Shown piece by piece: positions 5,188 to 55,260 of a stretch of DNA of 64,000 nt (position 1 is its first letter; each line of letters starts with the position of its first letter). The notes under the pieces are model-generated. The model saw only the letters and a list, made by a program, of their open reading frames with translations, had not been told where the DNA came from and ran no database searches. The position numbers were made by a program, and so were the translations under genes. This DNA is from Acidimicrobiia bacterium (GTDB taxonomy: Bacteria; Actinomycetota; Acidimicrobiia; Spongiisociales; Spongiisociaceae): NCBI GenBank assembly GCA_009841075.1, contig VXMP01000061.1, forward strand, positions 14,366-78,365. Direction: 5' to 3'.

Positions 5188-5281
5188 GGGCGGGTACTGA
5201 AAAATGTCCTGGTCGGCCCGATTAGACGAAACGAAACCTCCTCGCCGGACACACCCCTACCGGGTCTTTTCCCCGCCCTGC
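5188..5281. repeat. Degenerate copy of the ~100-nt hairpin repeat family, inverted relative to the copy at 21902
   Basis: GGGCGGGTACTGAAAAATGTCC..GGCCCG...GACGAAACGAAACC...TCTTTTCCCCGCCCTGCT aligns to the reverse complement of copy 21902-22002 (14/17 in the left terminus). It ends directly at the TAA stop of the ABC exporter. Confidence 0.4.
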
Positions 5282-7075
5282 TTAGCGGCTCGCCACCGCC
5301 TGCTTGCGGAATCCGGTGCGATACATCCGGGCGTATAACCCGTCTGCATCCATCAGGTCAAGGTGGGTTCCTTGCTCCACCAAACGACCTTTATCCAGCA
5401 CCAAGATCCGATCGGCGGCCTGGATGGTCGATAAACGATGGGCTATAACCAGCGAGGTTCGGCCTCTCATCACCCTTTCCATCGACTCCTGTATCAGGGC
5501 TTCCGACTCGGAATCAAGGTGGGCGGTGGCTTCGTCCAGGATGAGGATGCGGGGATCTTCCAGGATCACCCGGGCCAGGGCGATCCTCTGTTTCTCCCCA
5601 CCCGACAGGCGGTATCCCCGCTCCCCCACCACCGTGTCGTAGCCATCCGGTAGCGAGGTCACGAAATCGTGGATATTGGCGGTCCGGGCGGCCGATTCCA
5701 GCTCCTCGGTGGTGGCCTCGGGCTTGGCGTAGCGAAGGTTGGCGGCGATGGTGTCATGGAACAGGAAGGTCTCCTGGGTGACCACCCCGATGGAACTTTC
5801 CAGAGATTCGGTGGTGGCATCCCGAACATCCACCCCGTCGATGGCAACCCGCCCTCGGGTTACGTCGTAGAGACGCGGGATCAGATAGCTGACGGTGGTC
5901 TTACCCGCCCCCGACGGACCCACCAGGGCGGCCACCTCACCCGGTTCGATGCGGAACCTCAGGTCCTCGATCGCCCATCTTCGAGTGGGTGTGGCGACGG
6001 AAACGGTGGGGCTTTCGCCCGGCCTGCCGAACCGGGCCACCGCGGTCAGGCCGACCCGATCCGGCTGCTCGTACCGGAAGAAGACCCCCTCGAAATCGAC
6101 CTGACCGGTCACCGGTGTGAGGTCTCGGGCGTCGGGTTTTTCGAATATCTCCTGGGAGAGGTCGAGCACTTCGAACACCCGCTCGAAGGAGACCAAGGAA
6201 GTGGCAAACTCCACCCGGGCGTTGGACATGGCCGACAACGGCCCGTACAGCTGAACGAGCAGGCTGGAGAACATGATCACCGTACCCAGGCTCATGTCAC
6301 CCCGGATCACCAGATAGCCGCCCACCCAGAACACGGAGGCGGTGCCCAAGGCCCCTACCAATCCCAAGGCGGCGAAGAACCATCTCCCTACCACAGCCGA
6401 TCTAACCCCCAGATCACGAACCATTCGGGCCTCGGCGGAAAAGCGAGACATCTCCTGGCGGCGGCGTCCGAACAGCTTGACCAATAAGGCCCCGCTCACG
6501 TTGAAGGTCTCGTTGAGGATGGCGGACATCGCCCCGTTGTGTTGCATCTGACGCTCGGTCAGGGAACGCAGCATTCGACCCACCCGGCGGGCCGGATAGA
6601 TAAACAACGGCAGGGCCGCCACCGCCAGGAGGGTCAGACGCCATTCGGCACCGATCATCACCACCAGGATGGCGGTTATAGAAACCACGTTCGACACGAT
6701 GGTCACAAAGGTGCCGGTTACCGCGGTCTGGGCACCGACCACATCGTTGTCGAGACGGGAAACCAGCTCGCCGGTTTTGGTCTCGGTGTAGAACCGAAGG
6801 GACATGCCCAACAGATGGCTATACAGGGCTCGGCGCAGATCGTAGATAATCCCCTCGCCGGCCCGGGCGGTCATCCAGCGCTGCAAGGCACCCACGGCGA
6901 CGCTCACCAAAGGGACCGCCACCATCGCCGCCCCCAGCAGGGTCAAACGGCCCACATCGGCAGCGGGGATGGCGTTATCCACCAGATCACGGATGAGGAG
7001 AGGCGGCACCACCGTAAGTCCGGACACCACCAAAATGGTGCCCAACACCCCTAGCAACAACATCCGGTAAGGCAT
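5282..7075 (-). CDS. ABC transporter, fused permease/ATPase (type I exporter, MsbA/MdlB-like)
   Basis: 597 aa. N-terminal six-TM domain, Walker A GPSGAGKTT, signature LSGGEKQR, Walker B ILILDEATA. Confidence 0.9.
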   Translation of the reverse strand: MPYRMLLLGVLGTILVVSGLTVVPPLLIRDLVDNAIPAADVGRLTLLGAAMVAVPLVSVAVGALQRWMTARAGEGIIYDLRRALYSHLLGMSLRFYTETKTGELVSRLDNDVVGAQTAVTGTFVTIVSNVVSITAILVVMIGAEWRLTLLAVAALPLFIYPARRVGRMLRSLTERQMQHNGAMSAILNETFNVSGALLVKLFGRRRQEMSRFSAEARMVRDLGVRSAVVGRWFFAALGLVGALGTASVFWVGGYLVIRGDMSLGTVIMFSSLLVQLYGPLSAMSNARVEFATSLVSFERVFEVLDLSQEIFEKPDARDLTPVTGQVDFEGVFFRYEQPDRVGLTAVARFGRPGESPTVSVATPTRRWAIEDLRFRIEPGEVAALVGPSGAGKTTVSYLIPRLYDVTRGRVAIDGVDVRDATTESLESSIGVVTQETFLFHDTIAANLRYAKPEATTEELESAARTANIHDFVTSLPDGYDTVVGERGYRLSGGEKQRIALARVILEDPRILILDEATAHLDSESEALIQESMERVMRGRTSLVIAHRLSTIQAADRILVLDKGRLVEQGTHLDLMDADGLYARMYRTGFRKQAVASR

Positions 7076-14019: not shown

Positions 14020-14256
14020 CTAGGCAGCGGCGTGGCTCAACACCGCTCTGATGTCGTCGTAGTCCAACCCGTAGGTGTCGCTGAACTCCTCCGCCGTTTT
14101 CCCGCCCTTGAGGTAGTGGAAGAGTGACTCAACCGGGAACTGCGTGCCCCGGAAGGCTGGGATGTTCCTGTTGCTGAGCCGCACAGCGGGGCAGCCGGTC
14201 AGGTCGACAACTTCCACGGGCGGGGCGTCGTCCAGGTAGCGGAACGTTTCGATCAC
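14020..14256 (-). CDS. DUF433-like small protein (antitoxin-like HTH)
   Basis: 78 aa. IPAFRGTQFPVESLFHYLKGGKTAEEFSDTYGLDYDDIRAVL matches the DUF433 pattern (P.FRGTR.PV..L...L..G....EF). GTG start preceded by AAGGAG. Confidence 0.6.
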   Translation of the reverse strand: MIETFRYLDDAPPVEVVDLTGCPAVRLSNRNIPAFRGTQFPVESLFHYLKGGKTAEEFSDTYGLDYDDIRAVLSHAAA

Positions 14257-14518
14257 AGCATCCGCTCCTTATTCGGAACGTGTCAGCAAACCCCTCGCAA
14301 GTACCACCCGCTGCGACCCAATCAACCAGTCCCTCCACTGCTATACGCCGGCCGATGAACGACGGATGGCTCCCCACCCGTCCAGGAACATATTCGACCG
14401 CGGAACAACCGCGCCAGTCGATCATTTTCAGTACCATCGAATCGTTCGGGGATTCCGCGGACAGGTCGTCCGTGTCCGGTTGGGCTGCTGTGACAGTGGT
14501 TGCCATGATGCTTCTCAA
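14129..14518 (-). CDS. Second, tandem DUF433-like ORF; the 3' end runs out of frame into the downstream paralog (possibly truncated or pseudogenised)
   Basis: MIDWRGCSAVEYVPGRVGSHPSFIGRRIAVEGLVDWVAAGGTCEGFADTF parallels the paralog. The C-terminal helix is missing and the reading frame overlaps 14020-14256 by 128 nt. Confidence 0.4.
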   Translation of the reverse strand: MRSIMATTVTAAQPDTDDLSAESPNDSMVLKMIDWRGCSAVEYVPGRVGSHPSFIGRRIAVEGLVDWVAAGGTCEGFADTFRIRSGCCDRNVPLPGRRPARGSCRPDRLPRCAAQQQEHPSLPGHAVPG

Positions 14519-14580
14519 TTATAGAAGTCGGGACTTCGTACTGGTTAGCGCCCTGATTCAGATGTCTACGGATGCGGTGG

Positions 14581-14778
14581 TCAGGGAACGGAGGCATAGT
14601 AGGCCCGGTCGACGAGCACGGAGTCGCGTAGCAGTATCTCAAATCTGACTTCGAGTTGGCGGCGGTGTTCGAAATCATCGGTGTAGTCTCGGGCATAGTC
14701 GCGGACGATTTCGACCGACGCGTCTGCTGCCCGCTCATATGGACCAGGTCGGCCATCGGGGCTTCTACTCAGTGGCAC
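14581..14778 (-). CDS. Hypothetical small acidic protein (65 aa), family not recognised
   Basis: ORF only (GTG start). Lies in the accessory islet upstream of the DUF433 pair, and the neighbouring ORF 14769-14975 overlaps it. Confidence 0.2.
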   Translation of the reverse strand: MPLSRSPDGRPGPYERAADASVEIVRDYARDYTDDFEHRRQLEVRFEILLRDSVLVDRAYYASVP

Positions 14779-15130
14779 ATGTTTTCACATGGAAGATGTC
14801 GCTTGCGACGACTTCGGCTTCGTCTGCCGTGGGGTGCGCAGTCGGCGAACTGCTCATGGAGTTTGCCGATAGCGGCGTGGGCGGTCTGCCCGAAGCCGAA
14901 CAGTTTCGGGTATCGGGGGGCTGAAACCCCGGACGTGCCGGTACTTGTAGTCTCGGGGACAGCGGAGGTAGTCACCAGGCTTACCGTGGAGCGGCTCGAG
15001 AACTACGACGGTTCCGAGGTGCTAGACCATGTGGGCTCCGGCTCGGATCGGTATCCGCCGCCCACTGTGTCTGGATTATTCTGTACAGTAGAGTATGAAA
15101 TAATACAGCAGGCTTACTGATGGAGAAGCT

Positions 15131-15346
15131 ATGCGGATATCGGAGAGGGGCCAGATAACGATTCCCAAGAAGATGCGGGAGCGTTTCGGCCTGAATCACA
15201 ACGTCGAGGTGGAACTGACTCCCACAGAGGGAGGACTCCTGATCCACAAGCGGACCGCGGCACATCATCCCGTCGAGCGGGTCTATGCAATCCTCGACAT
15301 AGGCAAGGACACTGACGACTACATAGAGGAGATCAGAGGACGGTGA
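15131..15346 (+). CDS. vapB: AbrB/SpoVT-family antitoxin (VapB-like)
   Basis: MRISERGQITIPKKMRERFGL is a swapped-hairpin AbrB-type N-terminus. GTGA overlap with the downstream PIN gene. Confidence 0.85.
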   Translation: MRISERGQITIPKKMRERFGLNHNVEVELTPTEGGLLIHKRTAAHHPVERVYAILDIGKDTDDYIEEIRGR

Positions 15347-15738
15347 TCACCGCGGTCGACACCAATGTCCTACTGGACATTCTCCTCGGCGACGAGCGCC
15401 ACGGCCACGAATCGCTGGAACGGCTCAAGACGGCGTACGACGCCGGTGCCGTTGTCATATGCGACATCGTTTACGCCGAACTCGTTCCGGCGTTCGGCGA
15501 GCGGGCCGTCATGGATGACACGCTGCGACAGATCAACGCGTCCCTGTCGCCGATCACCACCGACATCGCTTACGAGGCGGGCCGGCGTTGGCAGCGGTAC
15601 CGCCGAGCCGGCGGACCGCGAAAACGGATCATCACCGACTTCCTGATCGGAGCACACGCCCTCAGGACGGCTGATGCCTTCCTCACCCGCGACCGCGGCT
15701 TCTACACCACCTACTTTCCCGAACTCGCCACGGCCTGA
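15343..15738 (+). CDS. vapC: PIN-domain ribonuclease toxin (VapC-like)
   Basis: AVDTNVLLD...YAEL...DFLIGAHA...LTRD carries the acidic PIN residues. 131 aa, coupled to vapB. Confidence 0.9.
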   Translation: MITAVDTNVLLDILLGDERHGHESLERLKTAYDAGAVVICDIVYAELVPAFGERAVMDDTLRQINASLSPITTDIAYEAGRRWQRYRRAGGPRKRIITDFLIGAHALRTADAFLTRDRGFYTTYFPELATA

Positions 15739-21901: not shown

Positions 21902-22002
21902 AGGAGGGTGCTGAAAAAGAAGGGTATGCTTGGCCCGCAATTTCATCTAACTGTGGTTTCGTTCGGCCAGCGGGCCAAATGGACTTTTTTCAGCACCCTC
22001 CT
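21902..22002. repeat. Copy of the ~100-nt hairpin repeat family (best reference copy)
   Basis: AGGAGGGTGCTGAAAAAG...CTTGGCCCGC...GCGGGCCAAA...CTTTTTTCAGCACCCTCCT. 17-nt perfect terminal inverted repeat plus a 9-bp inner GC stem. Fills the ftsZ-pgeF spacer and touches the ftsZ TAA stop. Confidence 0.75.
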
Positions 22003-23081
22003 TAATCCTGCACCCAGTCGGGGATATCAAAGGGGTCATCTTCTTCGGAACCCCTGGATCCGCCGAGACGATCCGAGCCGTCGGGAAGGCGTGAGCCCAC
22101 GGAACGAATCCGACCGGTGGAACGTTGACCCACCCCGGCGGCGATCACGGTCACCCTTACTTCCTCCCCAAGCGACTCATCAGGGGTGGCACCGAAGATA
22201 ATGTGGGCATCGGACTCGGCATGCTCCTGAACGGAGCGGGCCGCATCGGAAACCTCGGCCAGGGTCATGTCGTAGGGTCCGCTGACGGACAGCAACACCC
22301 CTTTGGCACCCTCCATCGAGGTTTCCAGCAAAGAACAGGCCATGGCCTGCTGGGCGGCTTGCACAGCCCGGTTTTCACCTGAGGCCCTTCCCACTCCCAG
22401 CACTGCGGTACCGGCACCGCTCAGTACCGCCTTGACATCGGCAAAGTCCACATTGATAAGGCCCGGGGTGGTGATGATGCGGGTGATTCCGTTTACCCCG
22501 TCGGTCAAAACCTGGTCTGCCATGGCAAACGCCTCCATCATGGTGGTGGAGCGATCGGTCTCATGGAGCAGGTTGTCGTTGGGGATAACGATCATGGCGT
22601 CGACCGACTCGCGCAACGCGTCAATACCCTGTTCGGCCAGTTTGGATCGGCGATGGCCCTCGAAACCGAACGGTCTGGTAACCACCGCGATGGTCAGGGC
22701 CTCAAGATTGCGGGCTATCTCCGCGATAACGGGAGCGGCACCGGTCCCGGTTCCGCCTCCCTCACCCGCCGTCACGAACACCAGGTCGGATCCCGCCAAG
22801 GCCTCCTCGATTTCCTCCCGATGACCGTCGGCGGCCGTCTTGCCCACCGAGGGATCCGCTCCGGCACCCAAACCCCTGGTCAGGTCGGCACCGATGTTGA
22901 GTTTGATGTCGGCCTCCGACATCAGGAGAGCTTGGGCATCGGTGTTCACCGCAATAAACTCAACCCCCCTGATCCCGGACTCGATCATTCGGTTGACGGC
23001 ATTCGTGCCGCCCCCGCCGACCCCGACCACTTTTATTACGGCGACATAGCTATGTAAGGAGCTCTCGTTTATAAGAGTCAT
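22002..23081 (-). CDS. ftsZ: Cell division GTPase FtsZ
   Basis: GVGGGGTNAVN tubulin signature and C-terminal DDPFDIPDWV peptide. Confidence 0.98.
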   Translation of the reverse strand: MTLINESSLHSYVAVIKVVGVGGGGTNAVNRMIESGIRGVEFIAVNTDAQALLMSEADIKLNIGADLTRGLGAGADPSVGKTAADGHREEIEEALAGSDLVFVTAGEGGGTGTGAAPVIAEIARNLEALTIAVVTRPFGFEGHRRSKLAEQGIDALRESVDAMIVIPNDNLLHETDRSTTMMEAFAMADQVLTDGVNGITRIITTPGLINVDFADVKAVLSGAGTAVLGVGRASGENRAVQAAQQAMACSLLETSMEGAKGVLLSVSGPYDMTLAEVSDAARSVQEHAESDAHIIFGATPDESLGEEVRVTVIAAGVGQRSTGRIRSVGSRLPDGSDRLGGSRGSEEDDPFDIPDWVQD

Positions 23082-23972: not shown

Positions 23973-24922
23973 TTCCGGTCTCCTATATAAGGTGGTGCGG
24001 ACACAGACGGGAACCCGATAAATCTGACCTCGGGTACCAGGCCGATCCCGGTGCTGTCAAACACCCTTTGACCGACCTCTTGCACCAGGTCGTAAACATC
24101 CTGGGCGGTGCCAACCGGATCCACCACAAAAAAGTTGGCGTGCTTGGAGGACACATAGGCACCTCCTAGTCGAAACCCTTTCAGCCCTAACGAATCGATA
24201 ATCCGGCCCGCACTGTCTCCCGGAGGATTTCGGAACACACTGCCGGCGTTGAGTGTTCCGCCCGGCTGATGGTCTCTCCTCCACCGGATCGCCTCCCTCA
24301 TCCGGGCGGTGATTTTCTCCGGTTCACCCTCTCGGACGGAGAAAGTGGCTTCAAGAACCACCTCCTCGGGTCGGAGACCGCTGGTGCGATAGCCCAGCCC
24401 GAGCCGGTTTCGCCCCCGTTCGGACACCACGTCGTTGGCAGGATCCAGGATCGATGCCGAACAGATCACGTCAACCGTCTCGGTGCCGTAGAATCCGGCG
24501 TTCATCCGTACCGCCCCGCCCACCGTACCCGGGATCCCCACATAGAACTCCAGCCCGGACCACCCCTCGACCGCCATTCGCCGGGCCAGCACGGGGAGAC
24601 TGACGGCGGCACCGGCCCGTACCCGCAGTGCCTCCCGGTCCGGTTCTATCTGCCTGAACCCGGCACCGAGTCGGATAACCAACCCCCGGTAACCCTGATC
24701 CGACACCACCAGGTTGCTCCCTCGGCCGATAACCACCTGATCGATCTCGGCGGTCCGAGCCGCCGCCACCACCGCCCGAAGTAGTTGAGGAGTGTCTGCC
24801 TCGCAAAAGAACCGGGCCGGGCCCCCCAGCTTGTAGGTGGTCAAGGGGGCCAATTCCACGTTCGGTCGGATTCGACCTTCTGCTACGAGTTCTGTCCAGC
24901 TATCCATCAGGTTTTTCAGCAC
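23969..24922 (-). CDS. murB: UDP-N-acetylenolpyruvoylglucosamine reductase
   Basis: LAPLTTYKLGGPA, IGRGSNLV, GTLNAGSVFRNP motifs. Start (GTG 24922 or ATG 24907) uncertain. Confidence 0.9.
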   Translation of the reverse strand: MLKNLMDSWTELVAEGRIRPNVELAPLTTYKLGGPARFFCEADTPQLLRAVVAAARTAEIDQVVIGRGSNLVVSDQGYRGLVIRLGAGFRQIEPDREALRVRAGAAVSLPVLARRMAVEGWSGLEFYVGIPGTVGGAVRMNAGFYGTETVDVICSASILDPANDVVSERGRNRLGLGYRTSGLRPEEVVLEATFSVREGEPEKITARMREAIRWRRDHQPGGTLNAGSVFRNPPGDSAGRIIDSLGLKGFRLGGAYVSSKHANFFVVDPVGTAQDVYDLVQEVGQRVFDSTGIGLVPEVRFIGFPSVSAPPYIGDRN

Positions 24923-24928
24923 CCTCCC
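24912..24928. repeat. 17-nt repeat-terminus sequence (GGGAGGGTGCTGAAAAA on the minus strand) embedded in the murC stop / murB start junction
   Basis: Exact 15-17-nt identity to the left terminus of the intergenic hairpin repeats. Similarity to copy 43186 continues to about 24896. Confidence 0.5.
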
Positions 24929-36707: not shown

Positions 36708-37220
36708 TTGGTCTTGGCCGAACGAGCATTGATCCTCAACGCAACCTACGAACCGCTTTCCATTGTCAGTGCCCGCCGGGCCATGGTTTTGGTATTGCGC
36801 TCCAAAGCGGTAACCGTGGCCTCCTCCCACGACGTGTGGAAGAGCATCGACCAGGAGTTCGCCGTCCCGTCGGTGGTCCGCCTGAGGAACTATGTCAAAG
36901 TTCCCTATCATCGCCGGGTTCCGCTGACCCGTACCGCCGTTTTCGCTCGCGATCATCATCGTTGCCAGTACTGTCGTTCGCCGGCCGAAAGCCTCGACCA
37001 TGTGGTACCCAAATCCCGGGGCGGCGGGCACACCTGGGAAAACGTGGTGGCCTGTTGTCGCCGCTGCAACATCCGCAAGGGAAGCCGACTTCCCGAACAG
37101 GCCGGCCTGAAACTGACCCGCACGCCGGTTACACCCAGCTACCAGGGATGGCTGTACGCCGCTCTGAGCAAATCCCGTGACCCCCAATGGGGCCCCTATC
37201 TGAACGGTTCGGCCTCTTAG
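36708..37220 (+). CDS. HNH endonuclease-domain protein
   Basis: HHRCQYCRSPAESLDHVVPKSRGGGHTWENVVACCRRCNIRKG. TTG start after AAGGAGG. Confidence 0.85.
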   Translation: MVLAERALILNATYEPLSIVSARRAMVLVLRSKAVTVASSHDVWKSIDQEFAVPSVVRLRNYVKVPYHRRVPLTRTAVFARDHHRCQYCRSPAESLDHVVPKSRGGGHTWENVVACCRRCNIRKGSRLPEQAGLKLTRTPVTPSYQGWLYAALSKSRDPQWGPYLNGSAS

Positions 37221-39961
37221 AACTACCGAACATCAGGGGAATTGCCGATCCGACTGCGACGTTGTCGGGTGTGCCGGAGGGTTCGGAGGTGATCGTCAGC
37301 GAGGGCACTTACAGTGCGGGGGTCTGCGAGAACGGTCTTTGCGCGGGCACCTGGGCTTTGGGGGCATTACCGGTCACCGACACGCGGGCCGCGAGCGGGA
37401 GGCTGCCACTACCTACTTTGACGGTTATCCCCCCGGCAGGTGTCGAAACCTCTGATATCAGGGCAACTATCGCCAACACGGAGCAGTATTCCGTTGTCAT
37501 AGACGGAACTACTCATTCCACCGACTATTTCGACTACGTGGAGCGGAACAACACCGCGACTTTAAAGGCTCGTCCGGGGACGGGTGACGGTGCGCCGGGT
37601 GCTCCCCGGGGACTGCGGGTGTTGAGGTCTTCTGATCCGCCCCTGGTCTTCGTCAGCTGGGACCGTTTGGAGCAGTTGTACGGGTTTTCTGTCACCGGCT
37701 ATGAGGTGTATGAGTCGTCGTCTCCGGCTTGTGAGCGTCAGTCGCCGCCATTAGAGCCGTCTGAGGGGGTTCGGTTGGTGTCTGATCCGGTATTTTTGGA
37801 TGGCTCGTTTCGGGCGGGTGTGGAAAAGTGTTATTGGGTTCGGGCGGTCAACGAGCATAGTGTGGGTGGTTATTGGTCGCCTGTGGTGTCGACCCGTGGC
37901 GGGGGTTCGTTGCGTAGCGTGTCGGTAACGCCGGAGGAGCTAACTGTGTCTGAGATGGGCGGCACGGCTTCTTATTCGGTGGTGTTGGACAGCCAGCCCA
38001 CGGCACCGGTGATTGTCACTATTGGTTCGGATTCGGATGTGGTGGAGTTGAGTCGGAAACGGCTGGAGTTTTCTACTGCCGACTGGAAAATTCCGCGGAC
38101 GATAACGGTGACGGGGGTGGATGATGATGTTGACAACCCGGGTAACCGGCGTACTGCGACTGTTCGTCATAGCGTTTCGGGTGGTGGTTTTGATGGGGCG
38201 TCGGTGCCGTCGGTGTTGGTTACGGTGGCCGACGACGATGATGGTTTAGGTGTTGTGGTGTCGGCGGATCGGTTGACGGTTGCCGAAGCCGGAGGAACGG
38301 GGCAATATGCGGTGGTGTTGAGCAGCCGTCCTACCGGTTTGGTGGAGATCGGCTTGGAGAGTTCTGACACCGGAGCGGTTTCGGTGGCTCCGTCACGGTT
38401 GACTTTTAACCCTTCCGATTGGGATCAGGCCAGGAAGGTGACGATAACCGGCGTGGATGACAACGTTGACAACACCGACAACCGGCGATCGGCGACCATC
38501 CGTCACACAGTAAACGGCGGCGGCTATGGTGGGGTTGAGGTGCCTTCGGTTGCGGTGACGGTGCTGGACGACGACGGTTCGGCGGTGGCGGCAGTGTCAG
38601 TTTCTGAGACGGCGGTCACGGTATCAGAAAATGCGGGGACGGCGCGTTATATGGTGGCGCTGAGTGCCAAGCCTTCCGATGCGGTGGTAATCGCTGCGGT
38701 CACCGACGACAGTTCGGTAGCTACCGCACATCCGTCTTTGCTGACTTTCACCCCGGATAACTGGCAGTCCCCTCGTTTGGTGACGGTAACCGGCGTAGAT
38801 GACGACGTCGATAATCCCACCGCCCGGAGCACCACCGTCCTCCACACCCCTTCAGGTGGCGGCTACAGTGGTGTGGAGGTTCCTTCGGTGGATGTGACCG
38901 TCTCCGACGACGAACAAGCCGGCATCTCCGTGTCTGAGACCGAGGTGACTGTAGGAGAGAACGGCGGTACCGGACAGTATACGGTCAGTTTGAACAGCCA
39001 ACCCACCGGCCCGGTAACCGTCAACGTAGTGTCCCTTAACCCCACCATCGCCCGGGTTGGTCCGGCAACGCTGTCTTTCGATGCCAGTGATTGGAATATA
39101 CCGGCTGTGGTGACCGTAACCGGCCAAAACGACCACATTGACAACTCGGGTAACCAACGGCCGGCGACTATCCGCCATACCGCTACAGGAGGAGGCTACG
39201 GCACAGTCGCCGCACAGACGGTGGAGGTGGCGGTAACAGACGACGACAGTACCGAAGTGACCGTACCTGCGGGGCTGGTTTCGGTAGTCGAAAACGGCGG
39301 AACCAGCCGCTACAGTGTCCGTTTAAACAGCCGCCCGTCTTCGCCCGTGACCATCACCTTATCAACCAACGATAGTGAAATAGCTTCGGTGGATCCGACC
39401 ACCCTGGAGTTCGATCCCGGCAACTGGAACCGGTCCCAAACCGTGACCATCACCTCTAAAGGTTCCAGTGGTACAAGCACAGCTATTTCTCATACCGCAG
39501 CCTCTACCGACGCAGGCTATAACGGCATTGATATTTCGTTAGTTACGGTGTCAGTGGTACCCAAACCGTTCGTTTCTATAGAAGGCGGTTCGTGCGTGAT
39601 AGGAGGGGAAGACGCCGTGTTCACCATAATGGCAGACCGGCCGGTAGGTGCCGACCTGAAAGTCTCGTTCTATCTCGGTTCCAACTGGAGAGTCCTGGTA
39701 GGCAACCCAAGAAGCGAGTCGGCCACCATCCCGGCAGGCGAACAATCGGTACAACATCGGGTACGGACCACAAACCCCACCGCAAGCGGCACAGGCACCT
39801 GGCAACCCTATAAATACATTGACGGCACCCCCGGATCGGTGACTGCCGTATTAGAACCCTGGCGCACAGACCAAACCGGCAACTACAACACCGGACTAGG
39901 TACCGCCAACGCCTCTGTAAAGGTATACCACCCCCTAGAAAGCCGCTACTGTCACCGGTAA
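37187..39961 (+). CDS. Large repeat protein: unique N-region, FN3-like domain, five ~110-aa tandem beta-sandwich (Calx-beta/Ig-like) repeats, and a Calx-beta-like C-domain
   Basis: 924-aa ORF. FN3-like segment PRGLRVL..VSWD..GYEVY..YWVRAVN..WSPV. Repeats each end in VTVTGVDDDVDN...RH...GGGY.G...PSV.VTV.DDD. No N-terminal signal peptide or TM segment was seen, so the start is uncertain. Confidence 0.75.
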   Translation: MGPLSERFGLLELPNIRGIADPTATLSGVPEGSEVIVSEGTYSAGVCENGLCAGTWALGALPVTDTRAASGRLPLPTLTVIPPAGVETSDIRATIANTEQYSVVIDGTTHSTDYFDYVERNNTATLKARPGTGDGAPGAPRGLRVLRSSDPPLVFVSWDRLEQLYGFSVTGYEVYESSSPACERQSPPLEPSEGVRLVSDPVFLDGSFRAGVEKCYWVRAVNEHSVGGYWSPVVSTRGGGSLRSVSVTPEELTVSEMGGTASYSVVLDSQPTAPVIVTIGSDSDVVELSRKRLEFSTADWKIPRTITVTGVDDDVDNPGNRRTATVRHSVSGGGFDGASVPSVLVTVADDDDGLGVVVSADRLTVAEAGGTGQYAVVLSSRPTGLVEIGLESSDTGAVSVAPSRLTFNPSDWDQARKVTITGVDDNVDNTDNRRSATIRHTVNGGGYGGVEVPSVAVTVLDDDGSAVAAVSVSETAVTVSENAGTARYMVALSAKPSDAVVIAAVTDDSSVATAHPSLLTFTPDNWQSPRLVTVTGVDDDVDNPTARSTTVLHTPSGGGYSGVEVPSVDVTVSDDEQAGISVSETEVTVGENGGTGQYTVSLNSQPTGPVTVNVVSLNPTIARVGPATLSFDASDWNIPAVVTVTGQNDHIDNSGNQRPATIRHTATGGGYGTVAAQTVEVAVTDDDSTEVTVPAGLVSVVENGGTSRYSVRLNSRPSSPVTITLSTNDSEIASVDPTTLEFDPGNWNRSQTVTITSKGSSGTSTAISHTAASTDAGYNGIDISLVTVSVVPKPFVSIEGGSCVIGGEDAVFTIMADRPVGADLKVSFYLGSNWRVLVGNPRSESATIPAGEQSVQHRVRTTNPTASGTGTWQPYKYIDGTPGSVTAVLEPWRTDQTGNYNTGLGTANASVKVYHPLESRYCHR
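37919..39559 (+). repeat. Five in-frame tandem coding repeats, period ~330 nt, inside the large repeat protein gene
   Basis: Recurrent DNA blocks such as GTGAC(G/C)GTAACCGGCGT(G/A)GATGA(C/T)GA at about 38108, 38438, 38780 and 39110. Protein repeats were aligned by eye. Confidence 0.8.
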
Positions 39962-39975
39962 CCAACCAAGTCTGT

Positions 39976-40013
39976 CGGTGCCCCAAGCATCCCCTTCTTT
40001 TTCAACACCTCCC
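39976..40013. repeat. Half copy (one arm) of the hairpin repeat family
   Basis: GGTGCCCCAAGCATCCCCTTCTTTTTCAACACCTCCC matches GCGGGCCAAGCATACCCTTCTTTTTCAGCACCCTCC (reverse complement of the left arm of copy 21902). No partner arm is present. Confidence 0.5.
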
Positions 40014-40075
40014 TTGGAGTTCCCCCGCTGGTAGAATCTCGGTTCGCATCCCCCCACCTCAAAGGAACTACAAAA

Positions 40076-43185: not shown

Positions 43186-43287
43186 GGGAGGGTGCTAAAA
43201 AAGATGGGGATGCTTGGCCCGCAATTACATCTACCGGAGTTTCATTCCCTGCCGGCGGGCCAATTGGATATTTTTCAGCGCCCTCCT
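43186..43287. repeat. Copy of the ~100-nt hairpin repeat family in a divergent intergenic region
   Basis: GGGAGGGTGCTAAAAAAGATGGGGATGCTTGGCCCGCAATTACATCTA...GGCGGGCCAATTGGATATTTTTCAGCGCCCTCCT. Near-identical in its arms to copy 21902. Confidence 0.75.
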
Positions 43288-43328: not shown

Positions 43329-44090
43329 ATGCCGACCCGGATAACCCTTACCGCTCTACTTGTCCTCCTGAGCGGCCTGCTCTGGGCCGGCCAGTTCCTG
43401 TTCGGCGGATCGCCTCGATCGGGCGGTGCCGCTTCGCTGACAGCTATCGGTTTGCTGACCCAGACCGGGGTGATCGTGGTGGCCCTGATCCTTTCCCCCG
43501 GCCTTTGGGTACGTCGAACCCTGGTGTTGGTAGGAGTGGGATGGGCCGGGATCGCTCTTACCATCCCGTTGAATCCGGCCTGGGTAGCGGCCTTGGTGTC
43601 CGGGGTGGCCGGGATCGGCCTGGCCTGGACAAAAGGAATGGACGAATGGTTCTACTCGGTCAAGCCCGACCGAGTTCCCCCCCAAGCCACCATCCTCGCC
43701 CTCGGCCTGGTATGGCTTCCTGGCCTGGTCGGAATGCTGGGGATGCCGGATTTGGGCCGGGGTGGATGGGTTCTGGGTGGTGCCGGATTGGTCTGGGGAT
43801 GGGCTTACGCCCGCACCCTCCGTGGTGCCCTATGGACCATCCGATTAGGGCTGTTACCCCTCGGGATATTGGCGGCGATCGGCCTAAACCCCTGGGCGGC
43901 GACGGGGTTGTTTGGTTATGTCGGGCTTCTTACCTATCTGTCCTGGACATCCGACGCCCGGCTTTCCGTCGAAAGACCCCCACCCCGGGTGGTAAAGGCC
44001 TTATCGGTATTACCGGAGGTCACTCCGCCCGATCTGCTACGGCAGGCCGGATACAGCCGGACGGGACGCCCGTTGAAAGACCCGGACTGA
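43329..44090 (+). CDS. Multi-pass membrane protein, function unknown
   Basis: Internal ATG of ORF 43029-44090, after the repeat. The sequence is hydrophobic throughout (LTALLVLLSGLLWAG...). Confidence 0.6.
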   Translation: MPTRITLTALLVLLSGLLWAGQFLFGGSPRSGGAASLTAIGLLTQTGVIVVALILSPGLWVRRTLVLVGVGWAGIALTIPLNPAWVAALVSGVAGIGLAWTKGMDEWFYSVKPDRVPPQATILALGLVWLPGLVGMLGMPDLGRGGWVLGGAGLVWGWAYARTLRGALWTIRLGLLPLGILAAIGLNPWAATGLFGYVGLLTYLSWTSDARLSVERPPPRVVKALSVLPEVTPPDLLRQAGYSRTGRPLKDPD

Positions 44091-51967: not shown

Positions 51968-53662
51968 ATGATACGACCCATGGATACAGCGATTAATCGA
52001 ATCAGCAGACGGATCACCCAGGAGCGATCCCAGGGTGGATCGCAGGCCATGCTTTATGCCACCGGGCTTTCCTCGGACGATATGGCCAAGGCCCAGGTCG
52101 GTATCGCCTCTATGTGGTACGAGGGCAACAGCTGCAATATGCATCTGAACGATCTGGCCGCCCGGACCAAGTCGGGGGTGACCGAAGCGGGTTTGGTGGG
52201 TTTGCGGTTCAACACCATCGGTGTCTCGGACGGGATGTCGATGGGAACCGACGGAATGTCTTTTTCGCTCCAATCCCGCGACCTGATCGCCGATTCCATC
52301 GAGACGGTTATGAGCGCCCAGTGGTATGACGCCAACATATCGATTCCAGGATGCGACAAGAACATGCCCGGGGCGGTGATGGCCATGGCCCGGCTCAACC
52401 GTCCGGCGCTGATGATCTACGGCGGCACCATTCAGGCCGGAACCGACCGACATGGTAACCCGATTGACATCGTTTCGGCCTTCCAGTCCTACGGCGAGTC
52501 GTTGGCCGGGCGGCTGAGCGAGGATGATCGGCTGGACGTGGTTCGCAATGCCTGCCCCGGTGCCGGTGCCTGCGGGGGTATGTATACGGCCAACACCATG
52601 GCGGTGGCCATCGAGGCGCTGGGAATGAGCCTGCCCTACAGCTCCTCCACCCCGGCGATTGATCCGGCCAAGGCAGACGAGTGTCGGGCGGCCGGAAGCG
52701 CCATCCGACGCCTGCTGGAGGAGAACATCCGGCCCACCGACATTATGACCCGAGCGGCTTTCGAGAACGCCATGGTCATCACCATGGTCCTGGGAGGCTC
52801 GACCAACGCCGTGCTCCACCTGATGGCCATCGCCCACTCGGCGGGGGTGGATCTGGAAATGGAGGACTTCCAGGCGGTCAGCGACCGTACCCCCTATCTG
52901 GGAGACCTCAAGCCCTCCGGGCAATACGTAATGTCCGACCTACACGCAGTGGGTGGAACGCCGGCCGTCCTCAAGATGCTGTTGGAAAGGGAGGCAATCG
53001 ACGGCGACTGCCTGACCGTAACCGGCCGAACCCTGGCCGAAAACCTGGCCGATTTGCCCGGTCTGGCCGAGGGACAGACGGTTATCGCCCCCTGGGATAA
53101 ACCGGTCAAGGATTCCGGCCACATCCAAATCCTCAGAGGAAACCTGGCACCGGAGGCGGCGGTGGCCAAGATAACCGGCAAGGAAGGACTGGCCTTCACC
53201 GGAACCGCTCTCCCCTATGACAGCGAGGAGGAAATGCTGTCCGCTTTGGAGAGGGGCGAGATCGGACCGGGTTCGGTGATCGTTATCCGCTACGAAGGCC
53301 CTAAGGGAGGCCCCGGGATGCCGGAGATGCTCACCCCTACCTCGGCGATCATGGGGGCGGGCCTGGGCCAGGAGGTAGCCCTGATAACCGACGGGCGCTT
53401 CTCCGGCGGATCGCACGGCTTCATCATGGGTCACGTTTGTCCTGAGGCGCAGGAAGGCGGGCCTATTGCACTGGTAGAGGCCGGGGATCGCATCGCCATA
53501 GACGCCGTAGCCCGCACCATCAGGCTGGATATCTCCGATCAGGAGCTGGCCCGGCGGAGGGAAGCCTGGTCACCCCCTCCACTCAAGGCGACCCGAGGCA
53601 CCCTCGCCAAGTACATTCGGACGGTTTCTTCGGCCAGTACCGGGTGCGTTACCGACGCCTGA
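51968..53662 (+). CDS. ilvD: Dihydroxy-acid dehydratase
   Basis: [21 protein letters not shown] and DGRFSGG motifs. Start is ATG 51968 or 51980; the ORF opens at 51908. Confidence 0.95.
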
Positions 53663-53676
53663 TACGGGTAATAAGA

Positions 53677-53907
53677 ATGAGGCAGCTGGGGAACCTCTTG
53701 ATCCTGGGAGGCGCGCTGGTCATCCTGATCGGATTGGCCGCCCGGTTGGGAGTGCTTTCCTGGTTCGGGAACCTACCCGGCGATATCCGAAGGGAGGGGG
53801 AACGATCTGCCCTCTTCATCCCCCTGACCTCCATGCTAGTGGTAAGCCTGCTGTTAACCCTTTTGGTCAACCTACTGGGGCGATTCTTTCGTAACCAGGT
53901 CCCGTGA
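53677..53907 (+). CDS. DUF2905-family small membrane protein
   Basis: GNLPGDIRREGERSALFIPLTSMLVVS matches the DUF2905 pattern. Internal ATG chosen. Confidence 0.7.
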   Translation: MRQLGNLLILGGALVILIGLAARLGVLSWFGNLPGDIRREGERSALFIPLTSMLVVSLLLTLLVNLLGRFFRNQVP

Positions 53908-53913
53908 TTACTA

Positions 53914-54016
53914 ATGGGGGGCTGAAAGTCGGGGATGGGTTGGCCCCCGGCTTTCTTATAACCGGGATTTCGTTTCCTATCTGCGGGCCAACGGGATATT
54001 TTTTCAGCACCCTCCT
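53914..54016. repeat. Copy of the ~100-nt hairpin repeat family filling a convergent gene gap (left terminus degraded)
   Basis: ...GGGGATGGGTTGGCCCCC...GATTTCGTTTCC...CTGCGGGCCAACGGGATATTTTTTCAGCACCCTCCT. The right end touches the TGA stop of the NYN gene. Confidence 0.65.
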
Positions 54017-55260
54017 CAAGCCCAATCGACCAGAGCCTCGCTCTTTAGCCCCAGTGCGCCCGCGGCTTGGGCACCGGCCAGCACCTTACCATCGCTGGAC
54101 ACCACCACCGTCGAGGGACCCAGTTCCCGGGCTAAGTCGATAATCTCGTCGTCCGCCTCCCGACCCTCAAAGGTAAACCTGACCTCCACCCCGGTCTGCA
54201 ACCTATAGGCACTTCGGTCGGAACTTACATTGGAGTCCCAGATCACCGTAACCCAGGGGACCATTCTGGCTCTTACCCAAAACGTGGAGAGATCACCATG
54301 CAGACGATCACGACTCTCGGGTTGCCAGAACCGATCGGGCCAAACCTCCGGCGGATACATCTTGGCCGTGACGTTATACCCGTCCACCAGCAGGTTGAAT
54401 GGAGTCCCCAAATTGATCAGCCACTCCATCGCCTCTCGGCTGTCCGGCGAAACGCCATCCGGCAGAACCAGGGGCTGGTGGATGACGGCAGGCGGTTCCG
54501 GGGCGGAGGGACGAGTCCCGGTGAAGAGCCTCCTAACCACCTCATCCAGGTGTTGGGCCGCTTCCACCTCGTCCAGCTCCGCCCAGATGTTGGGAAGGGC
54601 GGAGGGGGTAGGAGGGCTGCGGTCGATCTTTCTTTCCTGTTCCAGATCGGCCCGAGTTTCGTCCCGCTGTCGGCGTACCTCCTCCAATTCGGCGGCTTGA
54701 TCGGCCAGTTCCCGTTTCAGATGGCGAATTTCGATCGCTTGTTGATCCCGTTCCTGTACCAGCTCAGACGGTAGGTTTTCCCTGGCCTCCTCCCAGGCCT
54801 GCTCCACCCTTTTGTCCGCTTGAGCCTCTGCCTTATCCGCCCTACTGCGCGCCTTCCTTTCCCCCCTCATCAACTTCTTTCGCTCCCCGACCAGCTTCTT
54901 GTTCTCTGCCTCAAGAACCCGGATGCGGTCGGTTTGGTCGGCGTCTCTCAGATCACGGCGAATGTCCTCTACCCGCTGCTCCCACCCTTCCGGACGCAGG
55001 ATAAAGTAGGCCGCCACCTGCTCGTATGGGTCGTCATCGTCCGTAGAGCCCTCAAAGTCCTCTGCCACCAGATCGCGAAACCACTCGTTCTGATCGACAT
55101 ACTCCTTGAGCACCTTGAAGCGCGGCGGCGGCAACCCCAGTCCGGTGTGGGCGTTGACCTTTCTCAAGACACCCGGCCTATCCGGCCCATCCATTTCCCG
55201 CAGGGTTTGGCGGGCGATTTCGATCATCCGGTTGTAGAGCTGTTCCTCACGATTTTGCAC
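54016..55260 (-). CDS. Coiled-coil protein with a C-terminal NYN/YacP-like (predicted RNase) domain
   Basis: C-terminal LLVDGYNV...VIWDS...EADDEIIDLA...VVVSSDG pattern. Central charged coiled coil. Confidence 0.65.
   Translation of the reverse strand: MQNREEQLYNRMIEIARQTLREMDGPDRPGVLRKVNAHTGLGLPPPRFKVLKEYVDQNEWFRDLVAEDFEGSTDDDDPYEQVAAYFILRPEGWEQRVEDIRRDLRDADQTDRIRVLEAENKKLVGERKKLMRGERKARSRADKAEAQADKRVEQAWEEARENLPSELVQERDQQAIEIRHLKRELADQAAELEEVRRQRDETRADLEQERKIDRSPPTPSALPNIWAELDEVEAAQHLDEVVRRLFTGTRPSAPEPPAVIHQPLVLPDGVSPDSREAMEWLINLGTPFNLLVDGYNVTAKMYPPEVWPDRFWQPESRDRLHGDLSTFWVRARMVPWVTVIWDSNVSSDRSAYRLQTGVEVRFTFEGREADDEIIDLARELGPSTVVVSSDGKVLAGAQAAGALGLKSEALVDWA

Follow-up and report, generated by a model that had tools for sequence, protein, structure and literature searches.

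Hairpin-Forming Intergenic Repeats of Sponge-Associated Acidimicrobiia as a Probable Family of TA-Inserting MITEs

Copies in the Window and Beyond

The stretch of DNA analyzed here (64 kb, referred to as the window) carries a cell-division gene cluster in the order mraZ...murC-murB-ftsQ-ftsZ-ylmD-ylmE-sepF-divIVA, without ftsA, which is an actinobacterial arrangement. The closest homologues of its FtsZ were annotated as Acidimicrobiia, the nearest named one belonging to Candidatus Spongiisocius sp. (80% identity), and the window FtsZ is also encoded in the MAG GCA_965243475.1 and in sponge metagenome contigs. Between ftsZ and ylmD, and at several other places in the window, copies of a hairpin-forming repeat were observed. 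Three of these copies are full and one is degenerate and inverted; a 32-nt remnant of one arm and a solo terminus were found in addition:

21902-22002, + strand: full copy in the ftsZ-ylmD spacer; the element proper spans 21903-22001 (GGAGGG...CCCTCC)
43186-43287, + strand: full copy between a divergent NUDIX gene (start 43167, - strand) and a hypothetical gene (43329-44090, + strand)
53913-54016, + strand: full, decayed copy between the convergent DUF2905 gene (53644-53907, + strand) and NYN_YacP gene (54016-55260, - strand)
5188-5282, - strand: degenerate copy between the ABC exporter stop (TAA 5282-5284) and nuoA (start 5092)
39983-40014, - strand: remnant of the 5' arm, 32 nt, downstream of a 924-aa gene ending at 39961
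24911-24927, - strand: solo terminus-like 17-mer, GGAGGGTGCTGAAAAAC, at the murC/murB junction

Two nhmmer profiles were employed. The first, built from the three full copies, returned 21902-22002, 43186-43287, and 53913-54016, all on the + strand, with E-values of 1e-25 to 1e-30. The second, built from a 33-copy family alignment, performed better than the three-copy profile and also scored the degenerate inverted copy at 5188-5282 on the - strand, with an E-value of 7e-8; this copy was likewise present in strain L169. Every copy named in the original prediction was recovered, either in place or displaced by at most 1 nt. What had been described as a half copy proved to be a genuine 32-nt remnant, identical to copy 21902 at 28 of 32 positions, with a local score of 24 compared to a null maximum of 17 over 2868 windows.

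The solo terminus was absent from that prediction. Here, murC ends ...GGA GGG TGC TGA, with the same frame-2 stop as the element brings to other loci. In three relatives, the stop of murC overlaps the start of murB (CTGATG), and the window junction exceeds theirs by 9 nt. A lost copy that reshaped the end of murC appears to have left this footprint. With the solo terminus counted in, as a match at 24913-24928, the 16-nt terminus occurred six times in the window at no more than two mismatches, compared to 0.04 expected occurrences. Extending the search by about 20 kb beyond the window ends added no further copies to the four copies and two fragments.

The copies in the window, which were 51–81% identical to one another, are old, and the TA flanks of copy 21902 were mutated. 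Copy 43186 kept TA at its 3' junction and was found in all ten population loci (L159-L168); the several different profile scores obtained there indicate several sequence variants.

Beyond the window, two sequence collections were scanned. In the metagenome collection, a 22-nt pattern yielded 28 loci, nearly all with full copies. In the genome collection, a 15-mer of the terminus yielded at least 119 loci, which were mostly chance matches. Among them were nevertheless diverged copies from three Acidimicrobiia MAGs (L064, L074, L095) and one Mycobacteriales MAG (L034), and L024 (Bryobacteraceae MAG) and L027 (Opitutales MAG) may contain relatives. Approximately 40 profile matches at E < 1e-4 were reduced to at least 32 distinct full-length loci from the window, sponge metagenome contigs (MKWU01, LXNI01), and Acidimicrobiia MAGs; the original prediction had foreseen a search for such further copies. 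The MKWU01 contigs belong to an Aplysina aerophoba assembly (PMC5649159), and a study on the metagenomes of sponges from the Mediterranean cites the accessions LXNI and LXNJ (PMC5099237).

Structure of the Element

The element proper reads GGAGGGTGCTGAAAAA...TTTTTCAGYACCCTCC, with ends that can also be written GGAGGGTGCTGAAAAAGACGGGGATGG...GGACATTTTTCAGYACCCTCC or, in short, GGAGGG...CCCTCC. It is ~101 nt long and has no coding capacity; in the family alignment, copy length ranged from 101 to 116 nt. The predicted architecture, a 17-nt terminal inverted repeat with an inner GGCCCG/CGGGCC stem, was confirmed in both parts. The terminal inverted repeat is perfect in copy 21902, and 91% of its cells were paired across 32 copies. 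Between the 17-nt repeats, the interior is asymmetric, carrying a conserved GTTTCGTT on one strand only.

The terminus sequence of the family is TAGGAGGGTGCTGAAAAA. Termini were better conserved than the interior, with mean pairwise identities of 85% and 62%, respectively, and the GGAGG/CCTCC ends were the most conserved part across subfamilies with differing interiors, as expected for transposase recognition sites. The Shine-Dalgarno-like (SD-like) GGAGG and the anti-SD-like CCTCC are the two ends of one inverted repeat, and the terminal repeats together with the internal palindrome give rise to the long hairpin as a by-product. In each orientation of the consensus, two frames close within 13 nt and the third is open; no homologues were returned when these open frames were searched against proteins.

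The same 17-nt termini were found around other interiors in L034, L064, L074, and L095, which hints at a wider group of elements with this terminus. It is less probable that the terminus marks a widespread, unrecognized MITE/IS group across Actinomycetota, possibly extending to Acidobacteriota and Verrucomicrobiota. Among individual sequences, the one at L034 893-999 (Mycobacteriales MAG) shares the terminal 15–17 nt around an unrelated interior, with CTAG on both sides. L024 4840-4951 and L027 293-452 are possible elements that also share the terminal 15–17 nt and have unrelated interiors; their TA flanks are ambiguous.

Target Site and Mobility

When the copies were aligned together with their flanks, most of them read ...cT/AGGAGG...CCTCCT/Ag..., so that the element proper is GGAGGG...CCCTCC with TA on each side. 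TA was present on both sides in 19 of the 32 distinct loci, whereas it accounts for 2% of dinucleotides. The bases just outside TA varied, while the first G and the last C of the element were invariant, which indicates a duplication of 2 bp and not of 3 or 4 bp. Duplications of 3 or 4 bp (CTA, TAG, CTAG) were rejected on the grounds that the left and right 4-mers disagreed in about half of the copies and that the outer bases alone varied; the decayed NYN copy would fit TTAG. The left TA was preceded by C in 15 of 23 loci (65%, background 27%, p 2e-4), and the right TA was followed by G in 16 of 25 loci (64%, background 26%, p 7e-5). Two exceptions were noted, namely L148 4031, with AA on both sides, and L138, with an incomplete duplication.

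Comparable behavior has been described for IS630 and ISY100, which insert into TA and duplicate it (PMC2170065). IS630 prefers CTAG (PMC2170065 and its reference list), and in rare products of IS630/ISY100 the element is flanked by AA/TT, or by TA at one end and A at the other (PMC2170065). The TA duplication and CTAG preference read from the present junctions point to IS630/Tc1-mariner.

Filled and empty sites were compared at three places. The NYN site was polymorphic within the species, being filled in the window and in L159 and empty in L160, L161, and L163, with an identical KAS protein on both sides of the comparison. The empty allele reads GGGCTT-TA-GGATCG, with the target TA present once, and the filled allele reads GGGCTT-gA-[element]-TA-Gt. 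Copy 53913-54016 provides the current end of the NYN gene. The filled allele encodes an NYN_YacP protein of 414 aa. Its empty counterpart encodes one of 428 aa, and the 14 additional residues bring the reading frame into overlap with the convergent DUF2905 gene, at the 3' end of the latter.

At the second place, the ftsZ-ylmD spacer measured 126 nt in the window compared to 46, 22, and 12 nt in L154, L155, and L157, respectively. These relatives, whose FtsZ proteins were 72–81% identical, have no element after ftsZ, and their ftsZ ends in TAG. The third case was a further presence/absence pair, L138 (filled) and L150 (empty), with flanks that were 98% identical. Here the site adjoins an older terminus-like remnant, and deletion between 11-nt direct repeats could also explain the polymorphism.

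Two copies in the Aplysina aerophoba metagenome, L135 4273-4376 and L148 1338-1441, were 100% identical at unrelated loci, and L152 703-903 holds two tandem copies with a common junction. Both observations are signs of recent activity. MIRU-like tandem units were ruled out, as the copies are dispersed and the sole adjacent pair consists of the two full elements in L152.

Origin of the Element

The hairpin repeats are very probably copies of a MITE in uncultured sponge-associated Acidimicrobiia that inserts at TA and would be mobilized in trans by a DDE transposase. The element has every structural feature of a TA-duplicating bacterial MITE, including a length below about 300 bp; such elements are described as shorter than 200 bp, with terminal inverted repeats, terminal TA, and target duplications (PMC2229807). 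A transposase made elsewhere in the genome would act on the element in trans, binding the terminal repeats, excising the element, and pasting it into TA, preferably CTAG, with duplication of the TA. Excision and pasting into TA would correspond to the IS630/Tc1-mariner mechanism, with a parent of the IS5/PIF-Harbinger type as the alternative.

The parent was sought in several ways. Neither a transposase nor a RAYT domain was found in the Pfam-annotated genes, which span the greater part of the window and extend into as much as 10 kb of flanking sequence. In ~1.3 Mb of collected loci, no parent element with these ends was detected with partner termini within 3.5 kb, and the viral contigs contained no long element with these ends. 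Comparison of the consensus with plasmids by blastn gave chance-level matches only, and a full-text literature search for the terminus sequence returned primers only. As no parent element was found, we infer both the mobilization in trans and the family of origin.

Derivation from, or mobilization by, an IS5-family transposase (PIF/Harbinger-IS5 superfamily, IS427-like) instead of IS630/Tc1-mariner was considered unlikely, if worth serious weighing. The terminus GGAGGGTGCTGAAAAAG resembles the E. coli K-12 IS5 ends GGAAGGTGCGAATAAG and GGAAGGTGCGAACAAG, sharing GGA-GGTGC-GAA-AAG (11 of 16 positions ungapped, 8 of the first 9), but this 16-nt likeness was deliberately sought and is weak evidence. 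IS5 itself prefers YTAR/CTAG targets, which was counted in favor of such a parent, whereas IS5 proper duplicates 4 bp, which was counted against it. By the junction statistics, a duplication of 2 bp fits and lengths of 3 or 4 bp are rejected; E. coli IS5 is also unlike the element in being 1195 bp long and in encoding InsH. TA-duplicating lineages do exist in the PIF/Harbinger-IS5 superfamily (PMC12730594), but a 2-bp TA duplication with a CTAG preference is documented IS630 behavior (PMC2170065), and the AA on both sides at L148 4031 fits the rare ISY100 product class.

Position Relative to Stop Codons

Contact of three window copies with stop codons, as originally predicted, was evident at the ftsZ TAA (22002-22004, - strand), of which base 22002 of copy 21902 forms a part, at the NYN TGA (54016-54018), and at the ABC exporter TAA (5282-5284). 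The consensus with its flanking TA was read in both orientations. In frame 0, TA and the adjoining G give an immediate TAG; in frame 2, Gly-Gly-Cys (Gly-Gly-Tyr on the other strand) is followed by TGA, 13 nt inside the element; frame 1 is open right through. Since TA together with the first G of the element makes TAG, an element that enters a TAA or TAG codon at its TA always leaves a stop in place, and the contact with stop codons is accounted for by TA-targeted insertion and this first G.

In 15 of the 32 distinct loci (47%), the stop of a neighboring gene was built from TA and the G of the element, and in three more the gene ended 13 nt inside. The ftsZ TAA, ABC exporter TAA, and NYN TGA of the window appear to be point-mutated forms of this TAG arrangement. 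The expected proportion on stops was 6% of non-coding TA sites, or 10% after CTAG weighting (p 1e-7 for the excess, with gene calls in the metagenome loci taken from a crude codon-usage caller). Target chemistry alone is therefore insufficient for the observed distribution. The excess was attributed to the survival of harmless insertions, and copies would persist where they are least harmful, in gene ends and intergenic spacers.

The approximately five-fold excess could also be taken as the sign of a stop-codon-homing MITE, whose ends (G after TA, then GGAGGGTGCTGA) would be shaped to land at or just before a stop and to restore it, through either gene-end targeting or a selected role of the stop-adjacent GGAGG hairpin. 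We regard this as improbable; if it were true, the selected hairpin could decouple or stabilize the upstream cistron. The stop-codon excess bears on the persistence of TA-targeting elements in compact, high-GC genomes.

RNA-Level Properties

The original prediction ascribed to the whole unit a hairpin on either strand, a possible bidirectional terminator-like function, and an outer stem that is an SD:anti-SD duplex. The hairpin was strong for copy 21902, with folding energies of −50 and −45 kcal/mol on the two strands (z approximately −5.3 for both), and the family consensus and this copy formed hairpins of −43 to −52 kcal/mol on both strands. It was weaker for copies 43186 (z −2.6 and −3.2) and 53914 (z −1.2 and −3.0), and for copy 5188 it was not significant.

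The terminator and the selected duplex were not borne out. No terminator-like site was detected at the three copies scanned, and promoter-like sites were absent from the two copies scanned for them. On the + strand the T-run starts 6 nt past the GC stem, on the - strand 11 nt, and it is itself paired with an A-run. In the outer and inner stems over 32 copies, 90% of positions were paired, and four two-sided changes were counted compared to 2.1 expected, a value that 72 of 500 shuffles also attained. Of the 32 pairs at the most variable stem position, 9 were broken, and RNAalifold returned no structure for the 32-copy alignment. For the SD:anti-SD duplex, then, there was no covariation, substitutions mostly broke pairs, and the ends are those of a terminal inverted repeat. 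Pairing without covariation indicates that the complementarity was inherited from a master copy and was not maintained locus by locus.

Copies occurred in both orientations, between convergent, divergent, and co-directional genes. Thirteen genes read into the 3' end of an element and five into the 5' end, a bias that was not significant. A gene leaving an element has CCTCC upstream and not GGAGG, so the ends are no ribosome-binding sites for the neighboring genes. The original prediction did not recognize the repeat as a named RNA, and Rfam provided none: the window gave no match at gathering score, the best sub-threshold match reached 15.9 bits compared to 59, and permissive matches were at chance level.

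A cis-acting RNA module kept by selection after genes, whether as a bidirectional terminator/attenuator or as an SD-sequestering hairpin, is very unlikely on these results. The very stable hairpins of copy 21902 and the consensus would suit it, as would the many copies abutting stop codons, the retention of copy 43186 in all population loci, and the functional motifs reported in other bacterial MITEs (PMC2229807). Against it stand the pair-disrupting substitutions and the unfavorable terminator scan, together with the variety of orientations and flanks and the Rfam result. In addition, on at least one strand, shuffled sequences fold as well as, or only modestly worse than, three of the four window copies; the NYN-site copy is dispensable within the species; and TA duplications with empty sites show placement by insertion and not descent of a regulatory site. 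For a MITE, the transcribed hairpin may incidentally alter mRNA stability or read-through, as in other bacterial MITEs.

The original label of "MITE/REPIN-like" held for a dispersed, hairpin-forming, non-coding family of MITE type but not for REPINs, and spread of a REP/REPIN-type repeat by a RAYT (an IS200/IS605-like tyrosine/HUH transposase) is barely credible, given that the repeat is indeed intergenic, palindromic, and multi-copy but makes a TA duplication, whereas REPINs make no target duplication, has 17-nt terminal repeats around an asymmetric interior and not two short REP palindromes, and is accompanied by no Y1/RAYT domain in the annotated genes of the window and its flanks.

Comparison with Known Elements

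Among described elements, the RUP repeat of pneumococcus (107 bp), which has been ascribed to IS630-Spn1, is alike in being ~100 nt long, non-coding, multi-copy, and intergenic, with terminal inverted repeats, TA insertion, and recent mobility (PMC2229807). Its mode of working, mobilization in trans by a TA-duplicating DDE transposase, would also be shared. In contrast, RUP belongs to a different phylum and has no sequence similarity to the Acidimicrobiia element. A known IS with matching terminal repeats exists for RUP; for the Acidimicrobiia element, no parent IS was detected. Furthermore, RUP has stops in all six frames, while the Acidimicrobiia element has one open frame per strand and is GC-rich, in a host of 61–69% GC.

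The Correia terminal repeats are 26 bp long and carry IHF and promoter motifs. Correia/NEMIS elements of Neisseria resemble the present family in their size of 100–155 bp, terminal inverted repeats, and TA at the ends; they form a long stem-loop on transcription, are often co-transcribed with their neighbors, and include some size variants with open frames (PMC2229807). They differ in showing no sequence similarity and in the promoter-like sites, of which the two scanned Acidimicrobiia copies had none.

With IS630/ISY100, the family shares the TA target, the 2-bp TA duplication, the CTAG preference, and the occasional AA or incomplete duplications (PMC2170065). The likeness is one of target behavior; IS630/ISY100 are 0.9–1.2 kb long with their own transposase, compared to ~101 nt and no gene.

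The repeats make up a new MITE family, of a kind that is well known, from a lineage that has been little studied; they are not a new RNA regulator. This gives a simple explanation for SD-ended hairpins on stop codons, including that of ftsZ in the cell-division operon. Gene ends in uncultured sponge symbionts are altered by a MITE family that is active or was so recently (NYN, 414 compared to 428 aa). In annotation, the copies should be masked as repeats, and entries as small ORFs, sRNAs, or terminators should be avoided. The copies are also useful as strain-level markers, since different sponge samples contain filled and empty alleles.

Neighboring Genes

Several observations were made on genes near the copies and in the compared loci. 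The 253-aa ORF at 43329-44090 (+ strand), beside copy 43186, was a called gene in all ten population loci and had no Pfam match; it fell below the codon-usage threshold of the crude gene caller. A decayed transposase was considered for the 800-bp stretch beside this copy and rejected, the stretch having no Pfam match and being called as a hypothetical gene in all strains.

The 924-aa protein (window 37187-39961, + strand) showed faint matches only, to fn3_6 and Calx-beta. In other strains (L160, L161 15948-18712), it was split into two ORFs of ~360 and 566 aa, which indicates a frameshift or an assembly difference. Similarly, the isoleucyl-tRNA synthetase at L154 14999-18195 (the locus with 81% FtsZ identity) was called as two ORFs of 551 and 518 aa; a frameshift or a long-read assembly error is possible.

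At approximately 14020-15738, the window carries a DUF433 gene and, nearby, a PIN-domain gene with a weak MazE-like antitoxin as its partner. The latter two form a toxin-antitoxin-like pair, which is located between ileS and dksA/lspA and was absent at the same place in L154, L155, and L157.
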